Of a DNA stretch of 64,000 bases, positions 3,503 to 60,094 are shown piece after piece; the first letter of the stretch is position 1, and each line of letters starts with the position of its first letter. Source of the DNA: Spartobacteria bacterium (GTDB taxonomy: Bacteria; Verrucomicrobiota; Verrucomicrobiia; Chthoniobacterales; UBA10450); assembly GCA_021325495.1 (NCBI GenBank), contig JAJPGZ010000012.1:120131-184130 (forward strand), written 5' to 3'. The notes beneath the pieces were generated by a model. It did no database searches. It saw only the letters and a list, made by a program, of their open reading frames with translations, and had not been told where the DNA came from. A program made the position numbers and the translations under genes.

Positions 3503-4771
3503 ATGAACGCCGAATTTATTGCCATGCTCGACTACCTGGAGCGGGAACGCGGGATCAAACGCGATGTCCTGCTCGAGGCGGTATCGACTGCGTTGCTCTC
3601 GGCCTCGAAAAAAAGCGTGAGCGCGTCACGCGATCTGCGCATCGACATCGACCCGAAGACCGGCGTCATTCGCGCGCTCGCGAAATTGCTCGTGGTCGAA
3701 GACGTCACGAATCCGCAGGACGAAATTTCGTTAGCCAAAGCGCGCAACATCAAAGCGGACGCGAACGTCGGTGACGAAGTGGAAGTGGAAGTGACTCCGA
3801 AAAATTTCGGCCGCATCGCCGCGCAAACCGCGAAGCAGGCGATGATGCAACGCATTCGTCAGGTCGAGAAGGAGATGATTTACGAGGAGTTCAAGGACCG
3901 CGCCGGTGAAATTGTTTCGGGCACGGTGCGCCGGTTCGATCGCTCGGATGTGATTCTCGATCTTGGCAAATTCGAAGCGATCATGCCGCAGCGCGAGCGC
4001 GTGGTGGTTGAAGATTACAACGTGGGCGATCGCTTGCGCGCCTATGTCGTCGCGGTCGATAACGGAATCCGCGGACCGGAAATCATTGTTTCGCGCAGCC
4101 ATCCGAATTTCGTTAGGCGACTTTTCGAAATGGAAGTGAGTGAAATTGCCGACGGCACGGTCGAGATTCGCGGCATCGCCCGCGAAGCGGGTTATCGGAC
4201 GAAGATCGCGGTCTGGAGCGCGAATGAAAAGGTCGATCCGGTCGGCGCTTGCGTCGGCATGCGTGGTTCGCGCGTGAAGAACATTGTGCGCGAGCTGAAT
4301 AACGAAAAGGTGGACATCATTCGTTGGAGCTCGGACCCGAAGGAATACGTGCTCGAGGCGCTGAAGCCGGCCAAGGTGAAAAACCTCGTGTTCGATACGG
4401 AAAAGAAGAGCGTGCAAATTTCCGTGGATGAAGATCAGCTTTCGCTCGCGATCGGGAAAAAGGGACAGAACGCGCGACTGACTTCGCGATTGACCGGTTG
4501 GGAAATCAACATCGACAAGGACACGTCGGCGACGACGGCGGTCGAGCAGAAGGTCGCGCAAGCGGCGCAAACGCTCGCGGCCGCGTTGCCGATCACGAAT
4601 GACCAGGCGATGACGCTGGTGAAGTCCGGTTTCACTAACTTAGAAGGATTGCGCGACGCGGACGTCTCTGATTTCGTGGACATCCTCGGCGTCGATGAAG
4701 CGAAGGCGCAGGAAATCCATGCGGCCGTGCCGCGAGAAGAAGCAGCAGCGCAGAACGCCGGCTCGGCCTAA
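3503..4771 (+). CDS. nusA: Transcription termination/antitermination factor NusA
   Basis: 422 aa with an N-terminal NusA domain, S1 and two KH domains (GACVGMRGSRVKNIVRELNNEKVDII). It is followed by infB. Confidence 0.95.
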   Translation: MNAEFIAMLDYLERERGIKRDVLLEAVSTALLSASKKSVSASRDLRIDIDPKTGVIRALAKLLVVEDVTNPQDEISLAKARNIKADANVGDEVEVEVTPKNFGRIAAQTAKQAMMQRIRQVEKEMIYEEFKDRAGEIVSGTVRRFDRSDVILDLGKFEAIMPQRERVVVEDYNVGDRLRAYVVAVDNGIRGPEIIVSRSHPNFVRRLFEMEVSEIADGTVEIRGIAREAGYRTKIAVWSANEKVDPVGACVGMRGSRVKNIVRELNNEKVDIIRWSSDPKEYVLEALKPAKVKNLVFDTEKKSVQISVDEDQLSLAIGKKGQNARLTSRLTGWEINIDKDTSATTAVEQKVAQAAQTLAAALPITNDQAMTLVKSGFTNLEGLRDADVSDFVDILGVDEAKAQEIHAAVPREEAAAQNAGSA

Positions 4772-4802
4772 CGAGCCATGAAAAAGATTTTTAGATATCA
4801 GA

Positions 4803-6977
4803 ATGGCAACGAAAACGACCAGCAAGACGGCAGCGAAAAAAACGGCGACCCGCAAAACCGCGGCGACGAAGCCGGCTTCCGGCAAAGCCAAGGTCGTTAA
4901 GAAAAAAACGGAACCGGCCCCGGCTCCGGAAGTTAAAAAGCCGGCCGCGCATAAACCGCCGCCGGCGCCGAAACGCCATGTCGAGAGCGTTTCGTTGATC
5001 GATAAACAAGCGGCGCCGAAGAAATCGGAAGACGGCGAAGTTAAGAAGAAAACGACGGTGTTGCCGCCAATCTCGCGCATTCGCGAATCCATGGCGGCGC
5101 CGCCGCCGAAACCGGTCGAGGCGCCGAAGCCCGAGCCGCCAAAGGAAGTTGTCGATCTTGCGCCGGAAGCGCCGGCGACTCCGGTGGAGGAGGAAGAGCC
5201 GCAGAATGTCATCCACATCAAGCCGCCGATTATTGTGAAGCAACTCGCGGCAGAGCTGGGCTTGAAACCGCATCAGGTCATCGCCGAGCTGATGGCTTTC
5301 AACATTTTTGCGAACATCAATCAGACGATCGAGCCCGACATCGCGTCGAAAATTGCGGAAGCGCACGGATTCGTTCTCGAAAAGGAGCGCCGCGAAAAAG
5401 GCGGCGGTGTGCACAAGGTCGAGCAGGTCGTGGTCGCGCCGCCCGCGCCCGTTATCCAGAAGGAAGAAGAATTAAAACCGCGCGGTCCCATCATCACTTT
5501 CATGGGTCATGTCGATCACGGTAAGACCTCGCTCATGGACGCGATCCGCAAGACGCGCGTCGCCGCCGGTGAAGCGGGCGGAATCACCCAACACATCGGC
5601 GCGTATTCGGTCGATCACAAAGGGTCGCGCATTACTTTCATTGATACGCCGGGTCACGCTGCGTTCACGGCCATGCGCGCGCGCGGCGCAAACGTGACCG
5701 ACATTGTCGTGCTCGTTGTCGCCGCGGACGACGGATTGATGCCGCAGACGCTCGAAGCGATCAGTCACGCCAAAGCTGCGCCACATGTGAAGATCATGGT
5801 GGCGATCAACAAAATCGATTTGCCCGGCGCGAACATCGACAGGGTAAAGAAACAACTTCAGGACCAGGGACTGACGCCCGAAGATTGGGGCGGCGAAACC
5901 ATTGTCGTGCCCGTTTCGGCTACGAAAGGTCAGGGCATCGATCAGTTGCTCGAGATGATGACGTTGCAGGCAGAGGTGATGGAATTGAAATCGTCACCGA
6001 CGGCAAAGGCGCGCGGCACTGTCATCGAAGCGCAGGTCGAAGCCGGCCGCGGACCGGTCGCGACCGTCATCGTGCAAATGGGCACGATACGCGTAGGCGA
6101 TCCATTCATCTGCGGCGATTACAGCGGCAAAGTGAAATCGCTCATCAACGATCAGGGCAAGATGATCAAGGAAGCGGGGCCGGCCATGCCGGTAAAAGTT
6201 CTTGGTTTCACCGGCCTCCCGAATGCCGGTGACGAATTCTTAGCCATGGAGTCTGAGCGCGAAGCTAAGCAACTAAGTGATGAACGGCTTGAAGCCAAGC
6301 GCGCCAACAAACTCGCGGCCCCCCAACGCGCCACTCTCGAAACATTGCTCGAAGCCGCCGATGGCAGGAAGACGCTGAAGATTGTCTTGAAAGCGGATGC
6401 GCAAGGCTCGCTCGAAGCGATCATTGGGGCGCTCGGTCAAATCGAAAGCAAGAAAATCAGTCTTGAATTCGTTCATTCGGCTGTCGGTCCCGTGTCCGAG
6501 TCGGACATTCTGCTCGCGAGCGCGTCCAACGCCGTGGTCGTTGGCTTCAACGTCAAAGTCGAGTCGAACGCGGTCACCGCCGCGCGTTCCGAAGGCGTGC
6601 AGGTAAAACTTTACAGCATCATCTACGAGCTGATCGATCAGATTAAAGAAGCGATGGCCGGATTGCTCGACCCGGAACATCGCGAGACGGTCATCGGACA
6701 CGCGGAAGTGAAACAAGTTTTCCAATTGAGCAAAGGTATCGTCGCCGGTTGTCTCGTGACCGACGGCCGGATTGCGCGCGTGGCGCGTGCGCGCGTCTTG
6801 CGCCGCCGTCAGCCGGTTTACGACGGCGGAATCTCGACGCTGCGTCGTTTTCAGGACGACGTGAAAGAAGTCCGGTCCGGTCTCGAGTGCGGTCTCAAGC
6901 TCGGCGATTTTAGCGAATATCAAGTCGGCGACATCATCGAGTCGTATCAACTCGAGCAAATCGCGCAGAAACTTTAA
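4803..6977 (+). CDS. infB: Translation initiation factor IF-2
   Basis: G-domain motifs [20 protein letters not shown] and NKIDL. The N-terminus is long, basic and Pro/Ala-rich. Confidence 0.95.
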
Positions 6978-7015
6978 CCCATTCGGCGTTTGCTGCGGCG
7001 AACGAGGGCAGTGTC

Positions 7016-7357
7016 ATGAAACATCGACAATTACGCGTGAACGAACTTCTCAAACGCGAGCTCAGCATTATCGTCGCCCGCGAATTAAGTTTCGAGAACG
7101 CGCTCGTCACCATCAATCAGGTCGATGTTACGACCGACCTCAAGAACGCGCACGTCTATGTCAGTGTCCTGGGCGAAAACAAAGACGTTCTCGCGCAGTT
7201 GGAAGAACATCGCGTCCCGCTCCAGACACAGCTTGCCCGTAACGTCGTGCTCAAATACACCCCGCATCTCATTTTCCATCTCGACGATTCGATCGAGCGC
7301 GGCACGCGCGTGATCAAAATCCTTCAGGAGATCGAGCCGCCTAACGACACCGAGTGA
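7016..7357 (+). CDS. rbfA: Ribosome-binding factor A
   Basis: 113 aa of RbfA-like sequence (NAHVYVSVLG, HLIFHLDDS), in the canonical position after infB. Confidence 0.9.
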   Translation: MKHRQLRVNELLKRELSIIVARELSFENALVTINQVDVTTDLKNAHVYVSVLGENKDVLAQLEEHRVPLQTQLARNVVLKYTPHLIFHLDDSIERGTRVIKILQEIEPPNDTE

Positions 7358-8334
7358 ACGCGGCCACTTTCTCCGAGATCGGAAAAGCTCTCCACGAACA
7401 TCAACGTGTCGCCGTCATGAGCCATGTGCGACCGGATGGCGATGCGCTCGGCAGCCAGCTCGCGCTGGGATTGTCGCTCAAGAAACTCGGCAAAGACGTT
7501 CGCATTTGGAACGAAGAGGGAATGCTGGAGAAGTACAGCTTTCTCCCCTCCTCCGATTTGGTATCTAAGCCACCGGCCGAACCGGAAGATGTCGATCTTG
7601 CAATTGCCTTAGACACCGCCATTCAAAGCCGGCTCGGCACCGCGCTGACTGCGATCAAATCCGCTAAGACTTGGATCAACATCGATCATCACCCGAGCAA
7701 CCCGCGTTATGGCGATCTCGTTTACATCGACGATACATCGCCCGCGACCGGCCAGATCATTTACGAATTAATCAAAGATCAGGGCCTGCCGTTCGACCGC
7801 GCGATGGCCGAGAATCTTTACGTCGCCATTTCCACCGACACCGGTTCGTTTCAATATCCAAACACGACCGCGCGCACTTATGAGATTGCGGCCGAACTCG
7901 TCCGCGCCGGTGTCGATGTTGGCCGCGTGAACCAGCTCACCTACGAAAATTATCCGAAGCGCCGCATCGAGTTGTTGCGCGAACTGTTAGGCACATTGCA
8001 TTTCGAATGCGCCGATCGCGTCGCGAGTTTTAGTTTGAGCATGAAGACCGCCGCCGATCTCGGCGTATTGCCGGAAGATAACGAAGGTCTCATCGATCAT
8101 GTCCGCGCCATCCGCGGCGTGGTTGTTGCCGCATTTTTCGAGGAGCTCAGCGACGGCAAAGTGCGCGTCAGCATGCGATCGAAAGACGATAGGGCCGACG
8201 TCTGCGCGGTCGCGACAAAATTCGGCGGCGGCGGTCACAAACTTGCCGCCGGTGCGCGGGTCCGCGGCTCGCTCGCCGAAGTCGAAGGCAAAGTGCTGGC
8301 GGAAATTTCCCATGTCCTTGACTGCAACTCCTGA
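7354..8334 (+). CDS. DHH/DHHA1 phosphoesterase (NrnA-like oligoribonuclease/pAp phosphatase)
   Basis: DHH motif INIDHHPSN and DHHA1 motif GGGGHKLAAG. The GTG start overlaps the rbfA stop (GTGA). Confidence 0.8.
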   Translation: MNAATFSEIGKALHEHQRVAVMSHVRPDGDALGSQLALGLSLKKLGKDVRIWNEEGMLEKYSFLPSSDLVSKPPAEPEDVDLAIALDTAIQSRLGTALTAIKSAKTWINIDHHPSNPRYGDLVYIDDTSPATGQIIYELIKDQGLPFDRAMAENLYVAISTDTGSFQYPNTTARTYEIAAELVRAGVDVGRVNQLTYENYPKRRIELLRELLGTLHFECADRVASFSLSMKTAADLGVLPEDNEGLIDHVRAIRGVVVAAFFEELSDGKVRVSMRSKDDRADVCAVATKFGGGGHKLAAGARVRGSLAEVEGKVLAEISHVLDCNS

Positions 8335-9034
8335 CGGCGTCCTGCTCGTCGACAAGGCCGATGGCATGACGTCGCACGACGTTGTTGCGATCGTTAGGCG
8401 CAAGCTCGACATCAAAAAAGTCGGCCACTGCGGCACGCTCGATCCGCTCGCGACCGGTTTACTTATTCTCACCATCGGTCGCGGCACGAAGATTCAGGAT
8501 CTGTTGATGAGCGAAGACAAAGTTTATGCCGGCACGCTTACGCTCGGTAGATCGACAAGTACGCAAGATCGACAAGGTGAAGTCGTCGAGACGCGCCCCG
8601 TTCCGGAATTGAACGAAGAACAAATTCGCGCCGCGTTCGAAAAGTTCCGCGGCGATTTTCATCAACTGCCGCCGATGGTCTCAGCTAAGAAACAGGGCGG
8701 CGTTCCGCTTTATAAACTCGCGCGTGAAGGCAAAACGGTGGAACGAGAGCCGCGTCTGGTCCATGTCTACGCCTACTCGATCGATAAGATCGCGTTGCCA
8801 GATATCGATTTTACGGTTCACTCGAGCAAAGGTTTTTACGTGCGCACCTACGCGCATGATATCGGCGAAGTCCTCGGCTGCGGCGCGCATTTGAAAAATC
8901 TGCGCCGGACCAAATCCGGACGTTTCGATGTCGATCTTGCAATTAGTGTCAGCGACATCCAAAGCAAGCCGCGCGACGAAATCGTCGGACGCATTCTAAG
9001 CTTGCCCCAAGTCTCCCGGATGCGCGGCGCATAA
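8312..9034 (+). CDS. truB: tRNA pseudouridine(55) synthase TruB
   Basis: ORF 8099..9034 trimmed to the ATG at 8312 (MSLTATPDGVLLVDKADGMTSHDVV). GTLDPLATGLL is present. Confidence 0.9.
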   Translation: MSLTATPDGVLLVDKADGMTSHDVVAIVRRKLDIKKVGHCGTLDPLATGLLILTIGRGTKIQDLLMSEDKVYAGTLTLGRSTSTQDRQGEVVETRPVPELNEEQIRAAFEKFRGDFHQLPPMVSAKKQGGVPLYKLAREGKTVEREPRLVHVYAYSIDKIALPDIDFTVHSSKGFYVRTYAHDIGEVLGCGAHLKNLRRTKSGRFDVDLAISVSDIQSKPRDEIVGRILSLPQVSRMRGA

Positions 9035-9041
9035 GATCGAC

Positions 9042-9968
9042 ATGTTGCACGTTCTGCATTCGATCGAAGAACTCGGGCAATTACCGGGCCCGCTTTTTTT
9101 GGCGATCGGCGTATTCGACGGCGTCCATCTCGGACATCAAGCCGTCATTTCTACGTCGGCCGAACACGCACAGACCGCGAAGGGCACGCCAGTCGTTGTT
9201 ACTTTCGATCCGCATCCGGAAAAAGTTCTGCGTCCGGAAAAAGCGCCGCATCTTCTCACCGCGACGCAGCATAAGATCGCGCTCATTCGCGGTCTCGGGG
9301 TTCATCATCTCCTGGTCATTCGCTTCGACAAAGAATTTGCCGCCATGTCGCCTGAGAAATTCGTCGAGCAACTCGTCGTCCATTCGAAACCGCTGCGCGA
9401 AATTTGCGTGGGGCACGAATGGTCGTTCGGCAAAGGTCGCGCCGGTAATCTCGATTTATTGAAGCAGCTCGGCGCGCGCGCGCACTTCGATGTGGTCGGC
9501 ATTCATCCCGTAACTGTGAATGGCGAAATCGTCAGCAGCACCGCGATTCGCCAGGCGGTCGAGCGCGGCGATTTCGCGCGCGCTGCGCAAATGCTCGGCC
9601 GCGAGTACACCATTCTGGGCACGGTCGTGCACGGCGATAACCTTGGGAAGCAAATCGGTTATCCGACCGCCAATCTCAGTGCGCACAGCGAGCAATTTCC
9701 GCCTAACGGCGTCTATTTCGCCGAAGCTAAGATCGACAATCAACTTTTCCGCGGGCTCGTAAACCTCGGCGTGCGCCCAACCGTCGCGACGGAAAAATCT
9801 GACCGCGTCCTGGAAATTTATCTTCTCGACTTCGATCGCGACATTTACGGCAAAGACATCGAGGTCCGCTTCATCAAATACTTGCGTCCGGAAAAGAAAT
9901 TTCCGAACGTCGACGCGCTTAAGCGGCAAATTGCGGACGACGTGCGCAGCGCACGCGCGCTGTCTTAG
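9042..9968 (+). CDS. ribF: Bifunctional riboflavin kinase / FAD synthetase
   Basis: N-terminal FAD synthetase motif GVFDGVHLGHQAV and a C-terminal riboflavin kinase domain (GYPTANL). Confidence 0.9.
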   Translation: MLHVLHSIEELGQLPGPLFLAIGVFDGVHLGHQAVISTSAEHAQTAKGTPVVVTFDPHPEKVLRPEKAPHLLTATQHKIALIRGLGVHHLLVIRFDKEFAAMSPEKFVEQLVVHSKPLREICVGHEWSFGKGRAGNLDLLKQLGARAHFDVVGIHPVTVNGEIVSSTAIRQAVERGDFARAAQMLGREYTILGTVVHGDNLGKQIGYPTANLSAHSEQFPPNGVYFAEAKIDNQLFRGLVNLGVRPTVATEKSDRVLEIYLLDFDRDIYGKDIEVRFIKYLRPEKKFPNVDALKRQIADDVRSARALS

Positions 9969-56175: not shown

Positions 56176-57048
56176 ATGAAGATCGTCATCATCGGCTCTG
56201 GTGGCAGGCTCGGCGCCGCATTAGCGCGCGCGCTGACCGGGAAATTCGACGTCACCGGTTTCAATCACGACGCTCTCGACATTGGCAACATCGGCGAGAT
56301 CCACGCGTGCCTCGACCGCTTGAAGTTCGACGTGCTCATCAACGCCGCCGGACTCACCGATGTCGATCTTTGCGAAAAGGAACCAGACCGCGCCTTCCGC
56401 ATCAACACGGAAGCGCCGCAGGTTTTGGCGCGGGTTTGTCGCGACAAGAACGCGAGGCTGATTCACTTCAGCACCGATTACGTTTTCGATGGCGAAAAAC
56501 GCGAGCCCTATACGGAAGACGATGTCGCCAAGCCGATCAGTATTTACGGCGCATCCAAGCGCGCCGGCGAAGAATCGGTCCTGGGCGTGCAAGATCGACA
56601 TCTTATTGTGCGCGTCTCGTGGGTATTCGGTCCGGATCGTCCGAGTTTCATCGATGGAGTGATCCGGCGCGCGATGGAAACCGAGGAGATCGAAGCGGTG
56701 GCAGACAAGTTCTCCCTCCCCACTTATACGATGGACATCGCCGAAATGTTGCCGCGATTGTTCGATAGCAATGTTCCGGGCGGAATTCTGCACTTTTGCA
56801 ACAGCGGCGAATGCAGCTGGCAATCCTACGCGCAACACGCGCTCGATTGTTGCCATAAGTTCGGCGTGAACGTGAAAGCGAAAACGGTCGCGCCGGTGAA
56901 AATGGAGAACATGAAAAACTTCGTGGCGCGCCGGCCGGTTTATTCAGTGTTGTCCACGGAGAAATACAAAAAGCTCGCCGGCGGCGCACCGCGCCCTTGG
57001 CGAGATGCGGTCGCCGATTATATTAAGAGCCACTATTCCAAAACATGA
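56176..57048 (+). CDS. rfbD: dTDP-4-dehydrorhamnose reductase
   Basis: ATG at 56176 (MKIVIIGSGGRLG). YGASKRAGE motif. Confidence 0.85.
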   Translation: MKIVIIGSGGRLGAALARALTGKFDVTGFNHDALDIGNIGEIHACLDRLKFDVLINAAGLTDVDLCEKEPDRAFRINTEAPQVLARVCRDKNARLIHFSTDYVFDGEKREPYTEDDVAKPISIYGASKRAGEESVLGVQDRHLIVRVSWVFGPDRPSFIDGVIRRAMETEEIEAVADKFSLPTYTMDIAEMLPRLFDSNVPGGILHFCNSGECSWQSYAQHALDCCHKFGVNVKAKTVAPVKMENMKNFVARRPVYSVLSTEKYKKLAGGAPRPWRDAVADYIKSHYSKT

Positions 57049-57743
57049 AAACAACTCTCTGCGGAATCACCTTGTCGATCTTTCTCTGCGCCGGCGCGCG
57101 CGCGGAATTGAAGTGGGAGCAAACGCAGATCGAGCTGCATCCCAAGCCTAACGACAAGCAGGCGGTCGCGCATTTTAAATACGAAAACATCGGCAAGACG
57201 CCGGTCCATTTTAAATCTGTGCACGCCTCGTGCGGTTGCACCACGGCCCAGACGCAGAAAACCGAAGTGCCGCCCGGCGAAAAGGGCGAAATCACCGCCA
57301 CATTCAACATCGGCGGTCGCACCGGGCTTCAGATGAAAACCGTTGCGGTGGTGACGGACGATCCGAAAAGTCCGAACACGACCCTGACTTTGAAGGCGAT
57401 CTTGCCGCAGATGCTCACAGTCAATCCGACATTCGTGTTTTGGAAAGGCGGCGAAGAACCGAAACCGAAAACGATTAACATCAAAGGCGGCTCGGATTTC
57501 GTGGTCAAGAACGTGAAGGTCACGCCGTCGAATCCCGAATTCACCACGAGCGTAGAGCCGAGCGGGGCCAGTGAGTGGAAAGTGAGCGTGCAACCCAAGT
57601 CCACCGACAAGGGTATGGCCGGAACGCTGACCATCGTGCCGGACTCACCGGATGTGGCCGCGCCCCAAGCGTATTACGCGAACGTGAGTGTGACCGCGAC
57701 CCCGCCGCCCGCGGCGGCGCCTTCACCGACGCCATCGCATTGA
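57045..57743 (+). CDS. DUF1573-domain protein
   Basis: Signal peptide and the HASCGCT motif typical of DUF1573. The C-terminus is Pro/Ala-rich. Confidence 0.75.
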   Translation: MKTTLCGITLSIFLCAGARAELKWEQTQIELHPKPNDKQAVAHFKYENIGKTPVHFKSVHASCGCTTAQTQKTEVPPGEKGEITATFNIGGRTGLQMKTVAVVTDDPKSPNTTLTLKAILPQMLTVNPTFVFWKGGEEPKPKTINIKGGSDFVVKNVKVTPSNPEFTTSVEPSGASEWKVSVQPKSTDKGMAGTLTIVPDSPDVAAPQAYYANVSVTATPPPAAAPSPTPSH

Positions 57744-57744
57744 T

Positions 57745-58176
57745 GTGATCGCGCGCGCCTTGCGGCAGGCGGCGCTGCTCGTCGTGCTGGCATTCCTGCC
57801 CGCGATCGGCGAAGCCGTTTATTTTCGCGGCAAAGTTCCGTGGCAATCCCGCCTAACGAGCGGCCAGACTGTCGATGTCGATCTTGCGCGAAGCTGGGGC
57901 GAGAACGCGATGTGGGTCGATGCTCGCCCGGACAACGAATTCGCAGCCGATCACATTCCGAACGCAATTTTGCTGAACGAAGATCGCTGGAACGATTTGC
58001 TCCCGCAATTTCTCGCGCATTGGTCGCCGGAGAAAAAGATTGTCGTCTACTGCAGCGCCGCCAGCTGCAATCTGGCCGAGGAGGTCGCGCGCCGTCTGCG
58101 CGACGAAGCAAAATTGCCTAACGACATCCGCGTCCTGCAAGGCGGCTGGGAAGAATGGCAGAAGAAAAACAAATGA
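57745..58176 (+). CDS. Membrane-anchored rhodanese-domain protein
   Basis: An N-terminal TM helix and the rhodanese active-site loop VVYCSAASCNLAE. Confidence 0.75.
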   Translation: MIARALRQAALLVVLAFLPAIGEAVYFRGKVPWQSRLTSGQTVDVDLARSWGENAMWVDARPDNEFAADHIPNAILLNEDRWNDLLPQFLAHWSPEKKIVVYCSAASCNLAEEVARRLRDEAKLPNDIRVLQGGWEEWQKKNK

Positions 58177-58595
58177 AGATCGCATGGCGCATTGTCGATC
58201 TTATCGTGGGCGGATTGTTCATCTACGCCGGAGTTCTCAAAGTCATCGACCCGATCCAATTCGCGCGCGACATCGATAACTACAAAATTCTTCCGTGGTC
58301 GATCGGCGTCCGGCTCGCCTTTTTTCTGCCGTGGCTGGAAATTTTTTGCGGACTCGCGCTCATCCTCCGTCGCCTTTATCTCGGTGGATTGTCGATCTTA
58401 TCCATACTCATGGGCGTCTTCCTCGCCGCATCGCTGATCGCCAAAGCGCGCGGCCTCGACATTAGTTGCGGCTGCTTCGGTCGCGTCAGCAAAAATTTCA
58501 GCTTTGCCTGGCACCTCACGCTCGACTTCGCAATTTTCGCCGCAATCATCGCGCTTTGGTTCGCGCAAAAAAATGAGCGAGGAACTCGACACTAA
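58155..58595 (+). CDS. MauE/DoxX-family membrane protein
   Basis: 146 aa with four TM helices and a CGCFG motif. Confidence 0.7.
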   Translation: MAEEKQMKIAWRIVDLIVGGLFIYAGVLKVIDPIQFARDIDNYKILPWSIGVRLAFFLPWLEIFCGLALILRRLYLGGLSILSILMGVFLAASLIAKARGLDISCGCFGRVSKNFSFAWHLTLDFAIFAAIIALWFAQKNERGTRH

Positions 58596-59259
58596 AGTTA
58601 AGCTCGCGATTTATGATCTGACCGCGGCGACCGGTCAGGTCCCGAATTCATCCGAAGTCGCGCGCAAGATCGACATCGACGAAAGCGAAGTGCTCGCGGC
58701 GTTCGCGCATTTGTATGCGAAGCGGCTCATTTTTCCCGAGCCCGGCGATCCCACGCGCATCCGCATGGCGCCGCCTTTTTCCGGCGTGCCGACTTCGTTT
58801 CCGGTGGAAGCGAATAACAAACGCTACTACGCGAATTGCGTTTGGGACGCGTACGGAATTGCCGCCGCCTTGCATTCCGATGCCGTCAGTCACGCGCGCG
58901 ACGGTTACTCCGGCGAGCCGCTCACGCTCGAAGTGCGAAACAATCAGCCGGTCCTGAAACCGTACCTCGCGCACTTTGCCGTGCCCGCGGCGGATTGGTG
59001 GGACGACCTCGTTTTCACCTGAGCGACCATGCTCCTCTTCCGGTCGGAAGAGAATGTCGATCTTTGGTGCAAAGCGAACAACATTCCGCGGCGGCCGCTT
59101 ATAAATCTCGAGCAGCTTTGGCAACTCGCCCTCACCTGGTACGCAAATCGCCTGACGGTGGAATCGCGTCGCCCGAAACCGGACGAAATGGTGTCGATCT
59201 TCGCCTCGATCGGCCTAACGGGTCCGTTTTGGGACCCGAAATCCGACCAATGGAACTAG
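58573..59259 (+). CDS. Alkylmercury-lyase (MerB) family protein with an in-frame TGA at 59020-59022: selenocysteine candidate or pseudogene
   Basis: ORFs 58504..59022 and 59029..59259 are in the same frame and are separated only by TGA GCG ACC. YANCVWD matches MerB YAWCALD (Cys96/Asp99). The TGA aligns with catalytic Cys159: LVFT-U-ATMLLFRSEENVDLW versus QSFC-C-HVHFFASVPTAEDW. Confidence 0.6.
59024..59059 (+). promoter_or_regulatory. SECIS-like stem-loop immediately 3-prime of the in-frame UGA
   Basis: Upper stem CTCTTCC (59035-59041) / GGAAGAG (59046-59052) with tetraloop GGTC (59042-59045). Lower stem CGAC..AT (59024-59030) pairs with AT.GTCG (59054-59059). The loop G residues are 23-24 nt from the U of UGA. 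Confidence 0.5.
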
Positions 59260-59765
59260 AGATTCGTCTCGCGAGTTCGGGAGATCGCGACGAAATTTGG
59301 AAAATTTTTCGCGAGACCATTAAGGCTGGCGATACCTATGCGATCGATCCGGAAATCAGTCGCGACGATGCGCTCGCATACTGGTTTGCAACCGGAACGC
59401 GCACCTGCGTTGCCGTGCAAGATCGACAACTACTCGGCACATATATTTTGCGACCGAACCAGGCGGGCGGCGGCGCCCATGTCGCGAACGCGGCATTCAT
59501 CGTCGCGCAAGACGCGCGCAGCAAAGGAGTCGGTCGCGCCATGGCGGTCCATTGTTTGGAGGAAGCACGGCGACTCGGCTTTCGCGCGATGCAATTTAAC
59601 TTCGTTGTCTCGACGAATGAATCCGCCATTCGCTTGTGGAAAGATCTCGGCTTCGAAATCGTCGCGACCTTGCCGAAAGCGTTTCGGCATCCGACGAAAG
59701 ATTATGTCGATGTTTACGTGATGTTTCGCTCGCTCGCGCAAAATTCTGAGGCAAATTCGGCCTAA
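59250..59765 (+). CDS. GNAT-family N-acetyltransferase
   Basis: ATG at 59250 (MELEIRLASSGDRDEI). Acetyl-CoA loop QDARSKGVGRAM. Confidence 0.8.
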   Translation: MELEIRLASSGDRDEIWKIFRETIKAGDTYAIDPEISRDDALAYWFATGTRTCVAVQDRQLLGTYILRPNQAGGGAHVANAAFIVAQDARSKGVGRAMAVHCLEEARRLGFRAMQFNFVVSTNESAIRLWKDLGFEIVATLPKAFRHPTKDYVDVYVMFRSLAQNSEANSA

Positions 59766-59767
59766 CG

Positions 59768-60094
59768 ATGCAAACCATCATCCAGGTCATCGCCACCGGC
59801 CGCGGTTCGTTGCGGACTCAGATCATGAGCGATCCGCAACTCGAGAAAAAATTCGGCTTCGAAAAAATTTGGGCGAAACAGCCGGGACGCCCGCACGGTT
59901 GGGCGAAGATCCACAGCGCCCGCGACGTTCACGGCGCGATCAATCTCGAATGGCACGCGCGGAGTTGCACACTCATCTGTCGCGTCGTCACCAAACTCGG
60001 CCACAAACCGAATTCGATCATCGGCGACTTCATCGATTATCTGCTCGCGCGACATCAAAGCCGCATTCTCGCCATTCACATCATGCGGCGGTGA
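59768..60094 (+). CDS. Hypothetical protein
   Basis: 108-aa ORF in a coding-like context. I recognise no family. Confidence 0.4.
   Translation: MQTIIQVIATGRGSLRTQIMSDPQLEKKFGFEKIWAKQPGRPHGWAKIHSARDVHGAINLEWHARSCTLICRVVTKLGHKPNSIIGDFIDYLLARHQSRILAIHIMRR

Follow-up and report, generated by a model that had tools for sequence, protein, structure and literature searches.

A MerB-like gene with an in-frame UGA is very probably a selenoprotein gene and belongs to a large bacterial clade

The gene at positions 58573-59259 of the window, i.e. of the whole 64-kb stretch of DNA analysed here, is very probably a genuine selenoprotein gene, which encodes a mercury-lyase-like enzyme with selenocysteine (Sec) in place of a catalytic cysteine. 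The explanation that accounts best for all observations, and in which we have high confidence, is that of one gene for one MerB-fold selenoprotein, with a UGA decoded as Sec through a SECIS element, in a clade dominated by the Sec form.

A reading frame continued across a conserved TGA

From the ATG at 58573, which is likely the true start, as the homologues agree with it, 149 codons lead to a TGA (59020-59022); the same frame then continues with GCG ACC ATG and runs to a TAG at 59257-59259 (Table 1). The initial annotation had proposed that the ORFs 58504..59022 and 59029..59259 belong to one frame. They are indeed in phase, with TGA-GCG-ACC between them, and this TGA is the sole interruption. 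The sequence, TGA included, is identical in an ENA assembly, an NCBI MAG and a Logan assembly, and in all three the 76-aa ORF downstream of the TGA is annotated separately.

Table 1. Features of the lyase gene and its neighbours (positions in the window)
Feature	Position	Strand	Remark
DUF1573 gene	57045-57743	+	upstream neighbour; Pfam
Rhodanese gene	57745-58176	+	upstream neighbour; Pfam
MauE/DoxX-like gene	58155-58595	+	upstream neighbour; Pfam; 23-nt overlap with the lyase start
Probable recoded CDS	58573..59259	+	149 codons, UGA (putative Sec150), 78 codons, TAG; predicted 228-aa MerB-fold protein
N-terminal helical, winged-helix-like domain	58573..58776	+	about residues 1-68, before the Pfam core; boundaries approximate
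Cys89 codon (TGC)	58837..58839	+	equivalent to MerB Cys96; invariant in clade alignment A4; aligned to PDB 3f2g and 1s6l
Asp92 codon (GAC)	58846..58848	+	equivalent to MerB Asp99; at least 90% conserved
In-frame UGA	59020..59022	+	putative Sec150 codon; opposite MerB Cys159; TGA in 79/79 homologous loci
'76-aa ORF' of gene callers	59029..59259	+	C-terminal third of the MerB fold
Putative SECIS hairpin core	59035..59052	+	stem CUCUUCC 59035-59041 / GGAAGAG 59046-59052; loop GGUC 59042-59045
Cys166 codon	59068..59070	+	conserved 'W-C' motif, 16 residues after Sec; clade-specific
GNAT acetyltransferase gene	59250-59765	+	downstream neighbour; 10-nt overlap of its start with the lyase stop
Conserved 108-aa ORF	59768-60094	+	downstream neighbour

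The codon at 59020-59022 is TGA in each of 79 homologous loci, which come from at least nine phyla; their hosts include Verrucomicrobiota, Acidobacteriota, Chloroflexota, Armatimonadota, Krumholzibacteriia, Latescibacteria, Planctomycetota, Gemmatimonadota and Actinomycetota. In 77 of these loci, the frame continues beyond the TGA without a stop over 75-80 conserved codons. Conservation at the protein level extends to the immediate surroundings of the TGA: the preceding residue is Thr in 99% of the loci (a T-U motif), codon +2 specifies Thr in 91% of them through ACC, ACG or ACT, and both codons between the TGA and the following ATG have a conserved amino acid and a free third position. The comparative evidence makes it close to certain that the UGA is recoded and does not act as a terminator.

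In the databases, most members of this clade are present as fragments. Database searches yielded 1655 homologues of the window protein, 1273 representatives from 50%-identity clusters and loci from 108 GTDB species. Of the 120 homologues that ranked best in the database, all but one have a length of 149-195 aa and a query coverage of 64-65%, each sequence fetched from this set ends with ...FT, and most of the 50%-identity cluster representatives likewise end at the UGA site. Truncated forms make up nearly all of the approximately 270 best matches listed, and the NCBI records of related MAGs also hold the truncated form. Public records systematically mis-annotate the clade as a truncated 'organomercurial lyase' and a small hypothetical ORF.

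We considered the possibility that these organisms have reassigned UGA to a sense codon throughout the genome. Only the in-frame TGA itself speaks for this. The terminal stops of these same genes are TGA in 53 of 76 loci, TAG in 16 and TAA in 7, indicating that UGA is an ordinary stop in these organisms, and TGA also serves as a normal terminator of ORFs all along the window. The probability of a reassignment appears negligible. It is also extremely unlikely that the gene has decayed into a pseudogene or that the TGA at 59020-59022 arose through an error in sequencing or assembly. There are signs of damage in two related loci, one (L048) with a frameshift upstream and the other (L050) with one loop G lost. 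Yet, the three assemblies are identical, TGA is found in 79 species of at least nine phyla and the downstream frame is under purifying selection; the three assemblies and the 79 species exclude the sequencing error that the initial annotation had wanted to see checked.

Another explanation is that the gene is split, translation stopping at the TGA and restarting at the ATG 59029 to produce polypeptides of 149 and 76 residues that assemble noncovalently. The gene callers' annotation of two ORFs agrees with this, as does the fact that 74 of 77 loci have an ATG at +3, two codons past the TGA. In the three other loci, however, this codon is ATC or ATT, and no Shine-Dalgarno-like sequence is found upstream of 59029. 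Furthermore, true stops vary, whereas the stop is always TGA in the 79 loci and never TAA or TAG, and the two spacer codons keep their amino acids while varying freely at the third position, which also argues against a split. Separation into two chains would remove the residue equivalent to the catalytic Cys159 of MerB, and the homologues that carry a cysteine at this site are single chains. The hairpin described below adds to these objections, and we consider a split gene very improbable.

MerB fold and active-site residues

With a cysteine in place of the stop, the joined product of 228 aa matched the Pfam MerB family PF03243 with 82.9 bits (cut-off 27), over profile positions 1-125 of 126 and uninterrupted across the stop. 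Searched separately, the N-terminal and C-terminal parts matched only profile positions 1-80 and 88-125, respectively. The Pfam match begins at residue 69, and the domain that precedes it gave weak HTH/LexA-type matches.

A profile of 28 joined sequences, searched against the PDB, matched MerB2 (5c17) with an E-value of 1e-20 and MerB of R831b (1s6l, 3f0p) with an E-value of 2e-8. In the profile alignment, C89, D92 and U150 stand opposite Cys96, Asp99 and Cys159 of MerB, as the initial annotation had proposed. Of the MerB string that it had quoted, the spacing of the F, S and W positions is identical, since the UGA is placed opposite Cys159 itself, whereas the cysteine that it had bracketed was one residue off. 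Codon +16, that of Cys166, specifies Cys in 95% of 77 loci; at the corresponding site the profile alignment has W-A in MerB and W-K in MerB2.

The closest full-length homologue, P0018, was used to stand in for the window protein in structure prediction. Its AF2 model (pLDDT 94.9, pTM 0.91) forms one compact MerB-like fold across the recoded position, with N-terminal helices at residues 3-18, 24-31 and 35-47. In a Foldseek search of the PDB with this model, MerB and MerB2 took all of the first 11 places, at TM-scores of 0.50-0.71; for the ten crystal-structure chains the range was 0.57-0.71. Alignment and model together predict a complete MerB fold for the window product. The continuity of the P0018 model across the site, together with the fusion of both parts in the cysteine forms, shows that the C-terminal part is not a separate gene.

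The hairpin after the UGA and its loss in cysteine forms

The hairpin core overlaps the codons for Leu-Phe-Arg-Ser-Glu-Glu. It begins 12 nt after the UGA, from which the loop is separated by 19 nt, and the loop consists of G23 G24 U25 C26, counting from the U of UGA. Published criteria for bacterial SECIS elements (bSECIS) specify an apical loop of 3-9 nt with G at its first two positions, an upper stem of 4-16 bp, a distance of 16-37 nt between UGA and loop and a minimum free energy (MFE) of -7.5 kcal/mol or lower (PMC13188914). The values found here all lie within these limits: a 4-nt loop starting with GG, a 7-bp stem, a spacing of 19 nt and an MFE of -10.6 kcal/mol. Of the 36-nt hairpin initially described, the 7-bp upper stem and the GGUC loop hold up; the lower part (59024-59027/59056-59059) folds in this sequence but is not conserved.

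A resemblance to the SECIS of E. coli fdhF, also suggested in the initial annotation, was confirmed on the actual E. coli sequence. In both genes the hairpin lies inside the coding sequence directly after the UGA and carries an identical GGUC apical tetraloop, which is one nucleotide nearer to the UGA in fdhF (G22 G23 U24 C25). The two elements differ in that the stem here is a perfect 7-bp helix without a bulged U, is unrelated in sequence and lacks a conserved lower part. They also differ in that the present element has no match to an Rfam model: no Rfam family, SECIS or other, was found at 58900-59200 even at E-values up to 10, and over the whole window Rfam detected tRNA alone.

On comparative data the hairpin is far beyond chance, though it is unremarkable from the window sequence alone. 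Folding of the single sequence was not significant (z -1.5 to -1.9), 8-15 of 200 shuffled sequences folding equally well. Among the homologues, the entropy at synonymous sites is about zero at codons +5 to +9, as compared with 1.2-2.2 bits in flanking codons, and codon use is nearly fixed (CTC in 59/59, TTC in 77/77, CGG in 74/76, TCG in 74/76 and GAA in 71/76 loci). Helix cells are paired in 97.7% of cases, against 51-61% in slid controls. Compensatory changes occur at two pairs: at the closing pair, C-G is replaced by A-U in two cases and by U-A in one, and the basal pair is either C-G or U-A, with covariation. The covariation is modest, the stem being nearly invariant, and the main support comes from the conservation of synonymous sites and the loss of the hairpin in the cysteine forms. 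The element is nearly identical in nucleotide sequence across at least nine phyla and dictates a conserved LLFRSEE peptide.

A few full-length homologues (P0212, P0226, P0240 and P0271-P0274) have cysteine at the Sec position. In the four for which DNA was available, the codon is TGC or TGT, only 3-5 of the 7 stem pairs are retained and the loop is GCUC or GCAC. The peptide MLLFR(S/T) is nevertheless kept in the cysteine forms despite the loss of the hairpin. The hairpin is thus tied to the TGA, being near-invariant with compensatory changes in the TGA forms and lost in all four cysteine forms with DNA. Its invariance in the former and its loss in the latter are left unexplained if the gene is split. 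The codons found among the homologues, TGA in all 79 loci and TGC or TGT in a few cysteine forms, bear out the Sec/Cys pair that the initial annotation had recognized in a UGA at a catalytic cysteine position. In this large clade the Sec form appears from the sequences to be the rule and the cysteine form rare.

Relation to known lyases, Sec decoding and proposed function

SaoL is a MerB-like 'selenocysteine-assisted organometallic lyase' (NCBIfam NF040728; Haft & Gwadz 2022, bioRxiv 10.1101/2022.07.06.499078), which is also listed in PMC9312934 and PMC13188914. As Sec-containing MerB homologues have been catalogued under this name since 2022, Sec in a MerB-like protein is not new in principle, and the present clade is related to SaoL, though distinct from it. 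The two have in common the PF03243 MerB fold, Sec at the position of MerB Cys159, the equivalents of Cys96 and Asp99, a near-constant use of Sec with rare cysteine variants and database entries that are routinely truncated at the UGA. In contrast to SaoL, the window protein scores only 23.3 bits on NF040728 (cut-off 140), and none of 28 clade members tested came near this cut-off (best E-value 5e-16). The motif is T-U here and C-U in SaoL, and about 78 residues follow the Sec, compared with about 50. The nine-gene SAO locus (SaoABP ABC transporter, SaoE and others) is absent, the neighbours being different according to Pfam and clustering. The hosts also differ: soil Verrucomicrobiota, Acidobacteriota, Chloroflexota and others here, as against exclusively anaerobic species for SaoL.

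The fold is also that of MerB R831b (PDB 1s6l, 3f0o, 3f0p) and of MerB2 (5c17), which is the nearest solved relative by sequence, and both the Cys-x-x-Asp motif and the second catalytic position align, except that MerB2 has Ser where the window protein and MerB have Asp. Unlike MerB, the window protein has Sec in place of Cys159 and lies outside a mer operon. It also has the additional conserved Cys166, which distinguishes it from both MerB and MerB2. Its scores on the NCBIfam MerB models NF033555 and NF009710 (16.1 and 17.8) are far below the cut-offs (200 and 193), and the 28 clade members likewise gave weak matches to such models.

Within 10 kb of the gene we found no merA, merR, merT or merP. 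The neighbours at this distance encode DUF1573, rhodanese, MauE, GNAT and GH63-like proteins, NifU and others. The arrangement DUF1573-rhodanese-MauE ... GNAT-orf108 is restricted to about 16 Chthoniobacterales loci, several of which are interrupted by an insertion that separates MauE from the lyase, and is absent in other phyla. Clustering of all neighbours revealed no partner common to different phyla; large extra clusters turned out to be antisense ORF artefacts. In ten distant loci, the closest ORFs seem unrelated or spurious. The DUF1573, rhodanese and MauE genes, which the initial annotation had described as thiol/chalcogen-redox types, say little on function, because they are conserved only within some Chthoniobacterales and not across the clade.

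The machinery for Sec insertion was searched for in the same sequences. No tRNA-Sec was detected by ARAGORN, either in the window of 64 kb or in 83 related loci, and searches for selA, selB and selD in the window and in about 800 kb of such loci were likewise negative. When E. coli SelA, SelB and SelD (NC_000913.3) were used in tblastn, the sole SelB-like match was IF2, encoded at 4803-6977 of the window within a nusA-infB-truB-ribF cluster. A scan of the window for other split ORFs gave 100 candidates, mostly spurious and GC-rich, of which a bSECIS-like filter left three: the lyase gene, 63728(+) and 39398(-). The last two are not in annotated frames and were rejected as further selenoprotein genes, so that the other split ORFs of the window provide no independent support for Sec use. 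A search of the literature on Sec use in Chthoniobacter, Verrucomicrobia and Acidobacteria yielded nothing useful; the selenoproteome papers searched do not mention Verrucomicrobia and include a single Acidobacteriota genome, in one survey. Nor is there any mention of MerB in BSepDB or deep-Sep.

These results leave room for a programmed read-through of the UGA, in which a near-cognate tRNA would insert a standard residue (Trp, Cys or Arg), stimulated by the hairpin and independently of SelB. The conservation of the downstream frame proves read-through, not the identity of the inserted residue, and the absence of Sec machinery from the window and related loci is compatible with such an event. 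Yet, the hairpin has the features of a SelB-binding element, with a GGUC loop at the fdhF distance and dimensions inside every bSECIS limit. In addition, a UGA at a catalytic cysteine position, paired with cysteine in homologues, is the classic signature of Sec, and SaoL provides a precedent for Sec at this very site. We know of no comparable hairpin-driven UGA read-through for standard residues in bacteria. We consider the insertion of a standard residue very improbable.

In the preferred reading, i.e. that of a selenoprotein, the UGA would be decoded as Sec by the standard bacterial mechanism, the hairpin at 59035-59052 serving as a bacterial SECIS that is expected to recruit SelB with Sec-tRNA(Sec) to the ribosome. 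By alignment, the active site would consist of Cys89, Asp92 and Sec150. By analogy with MerB, a soft metal or metalloid would most likely be held between the thiol and the selenol and a carbon-metal bond be cleaved by protonolysis; the substrate need not be mercury. Cys166 may aid the release of a tightly bound product.

The annotation of more than 1000 database entries is probably affected, these consisting of truncated 'organomercurial lyase' fragments and orphan 76-aa ORFs, and a clade-specific model would correct the truncated records, as has been done for SaoL. The gene also illustrates dual coding: an RNA structure fixes both synonymous sites and the peptide, and this constraint relaxes once TGA has changed to TGC or TGT. 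A broader proposal, which we put forward tentatively and rate as possible but rather unlikely, is that the clade is a so far unrecognised and nearly obligately Sec-dependent group of MerB-like lyases and provides abundant soil bacteria (Chthoniobacterales/'Ca. Udaeobacter', Thermoanaerobaculia, Chloroflexota and others) with their main MerB-type enzyme, which would act independently of mer operons and of the SAO system and might be a candidate for the unexplained mer-independent breakdown of methylmercury or other organometal(loid)s in soils. As a selenoprotein gene, the present gene would also document the use of Sec in soil lineages that are abundant worldwide and in which the biology of selenium has scarcely been described. 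A thiol/selenol metal site in a carbon-metal lyase fold, encoded without a mer operon, would link the cycles of selenium and of mercury or other organometals, and would provide a concrete enzyme candidate for demethylation in soils.

Reading frame and conservation of the UGA codon

The initial annotation had proposed that a MerB-family reading frame is broken solely by a TGA, and both the family and the frame were borne out. The ATG opens 149 codons up to the TGA, which is followed in the same frame by 78 codons and a TAG (see the table of features). With Cys placed at the stop, the 228-aa product scored 82.9 bits against Pfam MerB (PF03243, threshold 27) over profile positions 1-125 of 126, a match that therefore spans the stop; by itself, the N-terminal part matched positions 1-80 only, and the '76-aa ORF' 88-125 only. 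The same gene, including the TGA, was found in an ENA assembly (664-kb contig), in the NCBI MAG GCA_037024455.1 and in a Logan assembly, all of which annotate it as a 149-aa MerB-domain ORF and a 76-aa ORF.

Coordinates of the features discussed
Feature	Position	Strand	Remark
nusA - infB - DHH-family ORF - truB-like - ribF-like	3503-9968		standard cluster; infB (IF2) at 4803-6977
Lyase gene, ATG to TAG	58573-59259	+	TAG at 59257-59259
Overlap of MauE-like gene end and lyase start	58573-58595		23 nt
In-frame TGA	59020-59022	+	residue 150
Hairpin stem	59035-59041 with 59046-59052	+	7 bp
Hairpin loop	59042-59045	+	GGUC
Cys166 codon	59068-59070	+	'W-C' motif
Overlap of GNAT start and lyase stop	59250-59259		10 nt; GNAT ATG at 59250

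A total of 1655 relatives came up in a protein search; of the 120 best, 119 were 149-195 aa long, with a query coverage of 64-65%, and the sequences fetched among these short relatives all ended in ...FT, the codon directly before TGA. When cluster representatives at 50% identity were searched with a profile, 1273 matched, and most among the matches listed stop at the same position. We then relied on a GTDB scan with one genome per species (80 loci returned, 108 confirmed), whose loci came from Verrucomicrobiota (Chthoniobacterales, 'Ca. Udaeobacter'), Acidobacteriota (Thermoanaerobaculia, Vicinamibacterales), Chloroflexota, Armatimonadota, Krumholzibacteriia, Latescibacteria, Planctomycetota, Gemmatimonadota and Actinomycetota, with N-terminal identities to the window protein down to 37%. 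The codon was TGA, followed by x-T-M-L-L-F-R-S-E-E..., in 79/79 loci with the region present. The frame beyond it was open and conserved over 72-86 codons in 77 of these, the other two looking frameshifted. Full-length Cys relatives also exist, four of which read as TGC or TGT. The true terminators of the same genes were TGA (53), TAG (16) and TAA (7), so that these organisms also use UGA for normal termination, whereas the internal codon is constrained to UGA specifically (chance of 79/79 about 6e-13, assuming that 70% of stops are TGA).

Both frameshifted loci are from Verrucomicrobiota. L048 (MFD04944.bin.1.307) has its frameshift upstream of the TGA; in L050 (GB_HAYS_MAG_00079), the GGUC loop is short of one G (CCGTCGG), and the downstream frame is shifted. 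These copies could be pseudogenes or assembly errors.

If the C-terminal part were a separate gene, as the initial annotation had allowed, it might restart at the ATG of the third codon after the UGA. Yet three loci have ATC or ATT at this codon, and no Shine-Dalgarno-like sequence precedes the ATG in the window gene. The second codon specifies Thr in 91% of loci and uses ACC, ACG and ACT freely, a pattern expected of a codon that is translated. The separate-gene reading was not borne out: the full-length Cys relatives (P0212, P0226, P0240, P0271-P0274) are single chains, and the AlphaFold model of P0018, the closest full-length relative (56% identical), is one compact domain pair (pLDDT 94.9, pTM 0.91). 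MerB and MerB2 structures made up all 11 of its best PDB fold matches; TM-scores were 0.50-0.71 (0.57-0.71 among the ten crystal-structure chains), and about 195 columns were aligned.

The P0018 gene (L089 847-1524, Logan SRR28208100) has GGA (Gly) where TGA stands and Ser where the first catalytic Cys stands, and retains a perfect CUCUUCC-GGUC-GGAAGAG hairpin. Either both catalytic residues were lost very recently, leaving a copy that is inactive or repurposed, or the sequence is an assembly variant.

The hairpin downstream of the UGA

The predicted hairpin with its GGUC loop was found downstream of the UGA. Folded alone, it was statistically not unusual (z-scores -1.5 to -1.9) and no Rfam family matched it; the case therefore rests on cross-genome comparison. 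Synonymous-codon entropy was 1.2-2.2 bits at conserved flanking residues and about 0 at codons +5 to +9 after the UGA (77 loci), a stretch that reads CUCUUCC-GGUC-GGAAGAG. The constrained codons were CTC (59/59 loci), TTC (77/77), CGG (74/76), TCG (74/76) and GAA (71/76); at the comparison Arg codons +23 and +24, 6 codons were used at each. In a 75-sequence alignment, 97.7% of the cells of the 7-bp helix were paired, compared with 51-61% when the partners were slid. The closing C-G pair changed to A-U twice and to U-A once, and the basal pair alternated between C-G and U-A. The observed covariation score was reached by 0/500 shuffles, though a stem that varies so little leaves limited room for covariation.

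The four Cys forms read as DNA are a sharper test of the hairpin than covariation. They have TGC or TGT at the site and keep the MLLFR(S/T) peptide, but use different codons (CGC, TCT, TCC, ACC, GAC ...), form no more than 3-5 of the 7 pairs, and show a GCUC or GCAC loop where Sec forms have GGUC. Thus, the nucleotide invariance is tied to the TGA and not to the protein, and the hairpin is conserved with TGA.

Furthermore, the hairpin lies within all constraints of a published bacterial SECIS model. In E. coli fdhF, the UGA (codon 140) is followed by a hairpin with an identical GGUC loop at nt 22-25, against nt 23-26 in the window; this likeness, pointed out in the initial annotation, held on the fetched sequence.

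Window hairpin and the bacterial SECIS model (PMC13188914)
Constraint	Required	Window
Apical loop	3-9 nt	4 nt
Upper stem	4-16 bp	7 bp
G at first two loop positions	yes	yes
UGA-to-loop spacing	16-37 nt	19 nt
MFE	-7.5 kcal/mol or lower	-10.6 kcal/mol

Within the window, a crude bSECIS-like filter (frame open on both sides, stem of 7 bp or more, with a G[G/U] loop lying 16-29 nt downstream) was passed by only two other TGA sites, 63728 (+) and 39398 (-), which are probably chance matches. The former has a 13-bp stem within the start of a NifU-like gene, in another frame.

Genomic surroundings

DUF1573, rhodanese, MauE, lyase, GNAT and a 108-aa ORF follow one another on a single strand, with starts and stops that overlap. 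The overlaps at both ends of the lyase gene suggest a translationally coupled operon in the window lineage. This order occurs in only about 16 Chthoniobacterales loci, several with an insertion before the lyase, and no neighbour was common to several phyla among the related loci compared; the 'thiol/chalcogen' neighbours, offered at first as a functional hint, are therefore weak evidence.

The 10-mer AAGATCGACA, mostly with A or T as the next base, has 123 copies in the 64 kb (56 +, 67 -), about 1 per 520 bp, with 0.11 expected. Copies (185-194, 201-210, 58666-58675, 59055-59064 and 59192-59201, for example) are found in intergenic DNA as well as within genes, where they take every frame; some come in pairs on the same strand, spaced 15-16 bp. 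The window species and L016 (a related locus) carry about 2 copies per kb, the remaining Chthoniobacterales 0.1-1 and the other phyla 0; the 10-mer resembles a DNA-uptake sequence or another lineage-specific hyper-abundant motif. A second over-represented 10-mer, GCCTAACGAA (with CGCCTAACGA), has about 23 copies in the whole window, counting both strands.

Active site, probable selenocysteine and known relatives

A profile of 28 joined sequences matched MerB2 (5c17, E 1e-20) and MerB R831b (1s6l, 3f0o, 3f0p, E 2e-8). The alignment sets 'yyanCvWd' on 'LYAWCALD', so that Cys89 corresponds to Cys96 and Asp92 to Asp99, and 'ytCatmllFrse...W' on 'SFCSHVHFFASV...W' of the C160S mutant, so that Sec150 corresponds to Cys159; the F, S and W spacings agree in this register. 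The initial conclusion that the UGA replaces catalytic Cys159 thus stands, although the string written for it was one residue off. Cys166, 16 residues past Sec, is present in 95% of Sec-form loci and also in Cys forms; MerB and MerB2 lack it. It may serve as a resolving or metal-transfer thiol.

Neither sel genes nor a tRNA-Sec were found within the 64-kb window or in related loci, the sole SelB-like match in the window (E. coli SelB as query) being IF2. This absence would fit decoding of the UGA as a standard amino acid, an improbable reading that nothing else favours. Selenocysteine is supported by TGA in 79/79 loci, the SECIS features and the position at Cys159.

A Sec-containing MerB homologue had already been catalogued as SaoL, whose Sec, in a CU motif, superimposes on MerB Cys159 and which sits in the nine-gene 'SAO' locus of exclusively anaerobic bacteria (model NF040728; Haft & Gwadz, bioRxiv 10.1101/2022.07.06.499078). 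It is the only MerB-like selenoprotein in reviews of 2022 and 2026 (PMC9312934, PMC13188914), and BSepDB and deep-Sep make no mention of MerB. The window protein is not SaoL: it scored 23.3 bits against a cut-off of 140, has a TU motif, and differs in both neighbours and hosts. Nor is it canonical MerB (16-18 bits, cut-offs 193-200), and there are no mer genes within 10 kb. It therefore belongs to a separate subfamily of Sec-containing MerB homologues, with novelty limited by the 2022 precedent. In NCBI annotation, relatives go by 'organomercurial lyase' with a length of 150 aa and are thus truncated.

We conclude that the lyase gene is very probably a real selenoprotein gene of a MerB-like clade that is widespread, Sec-dominated and mis-annotated. 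By analogy with MerB and SaoL, its Cys/Asp/Sec site would cleave a carbon-metal bond by protonolysis, and Cys166 may help release.
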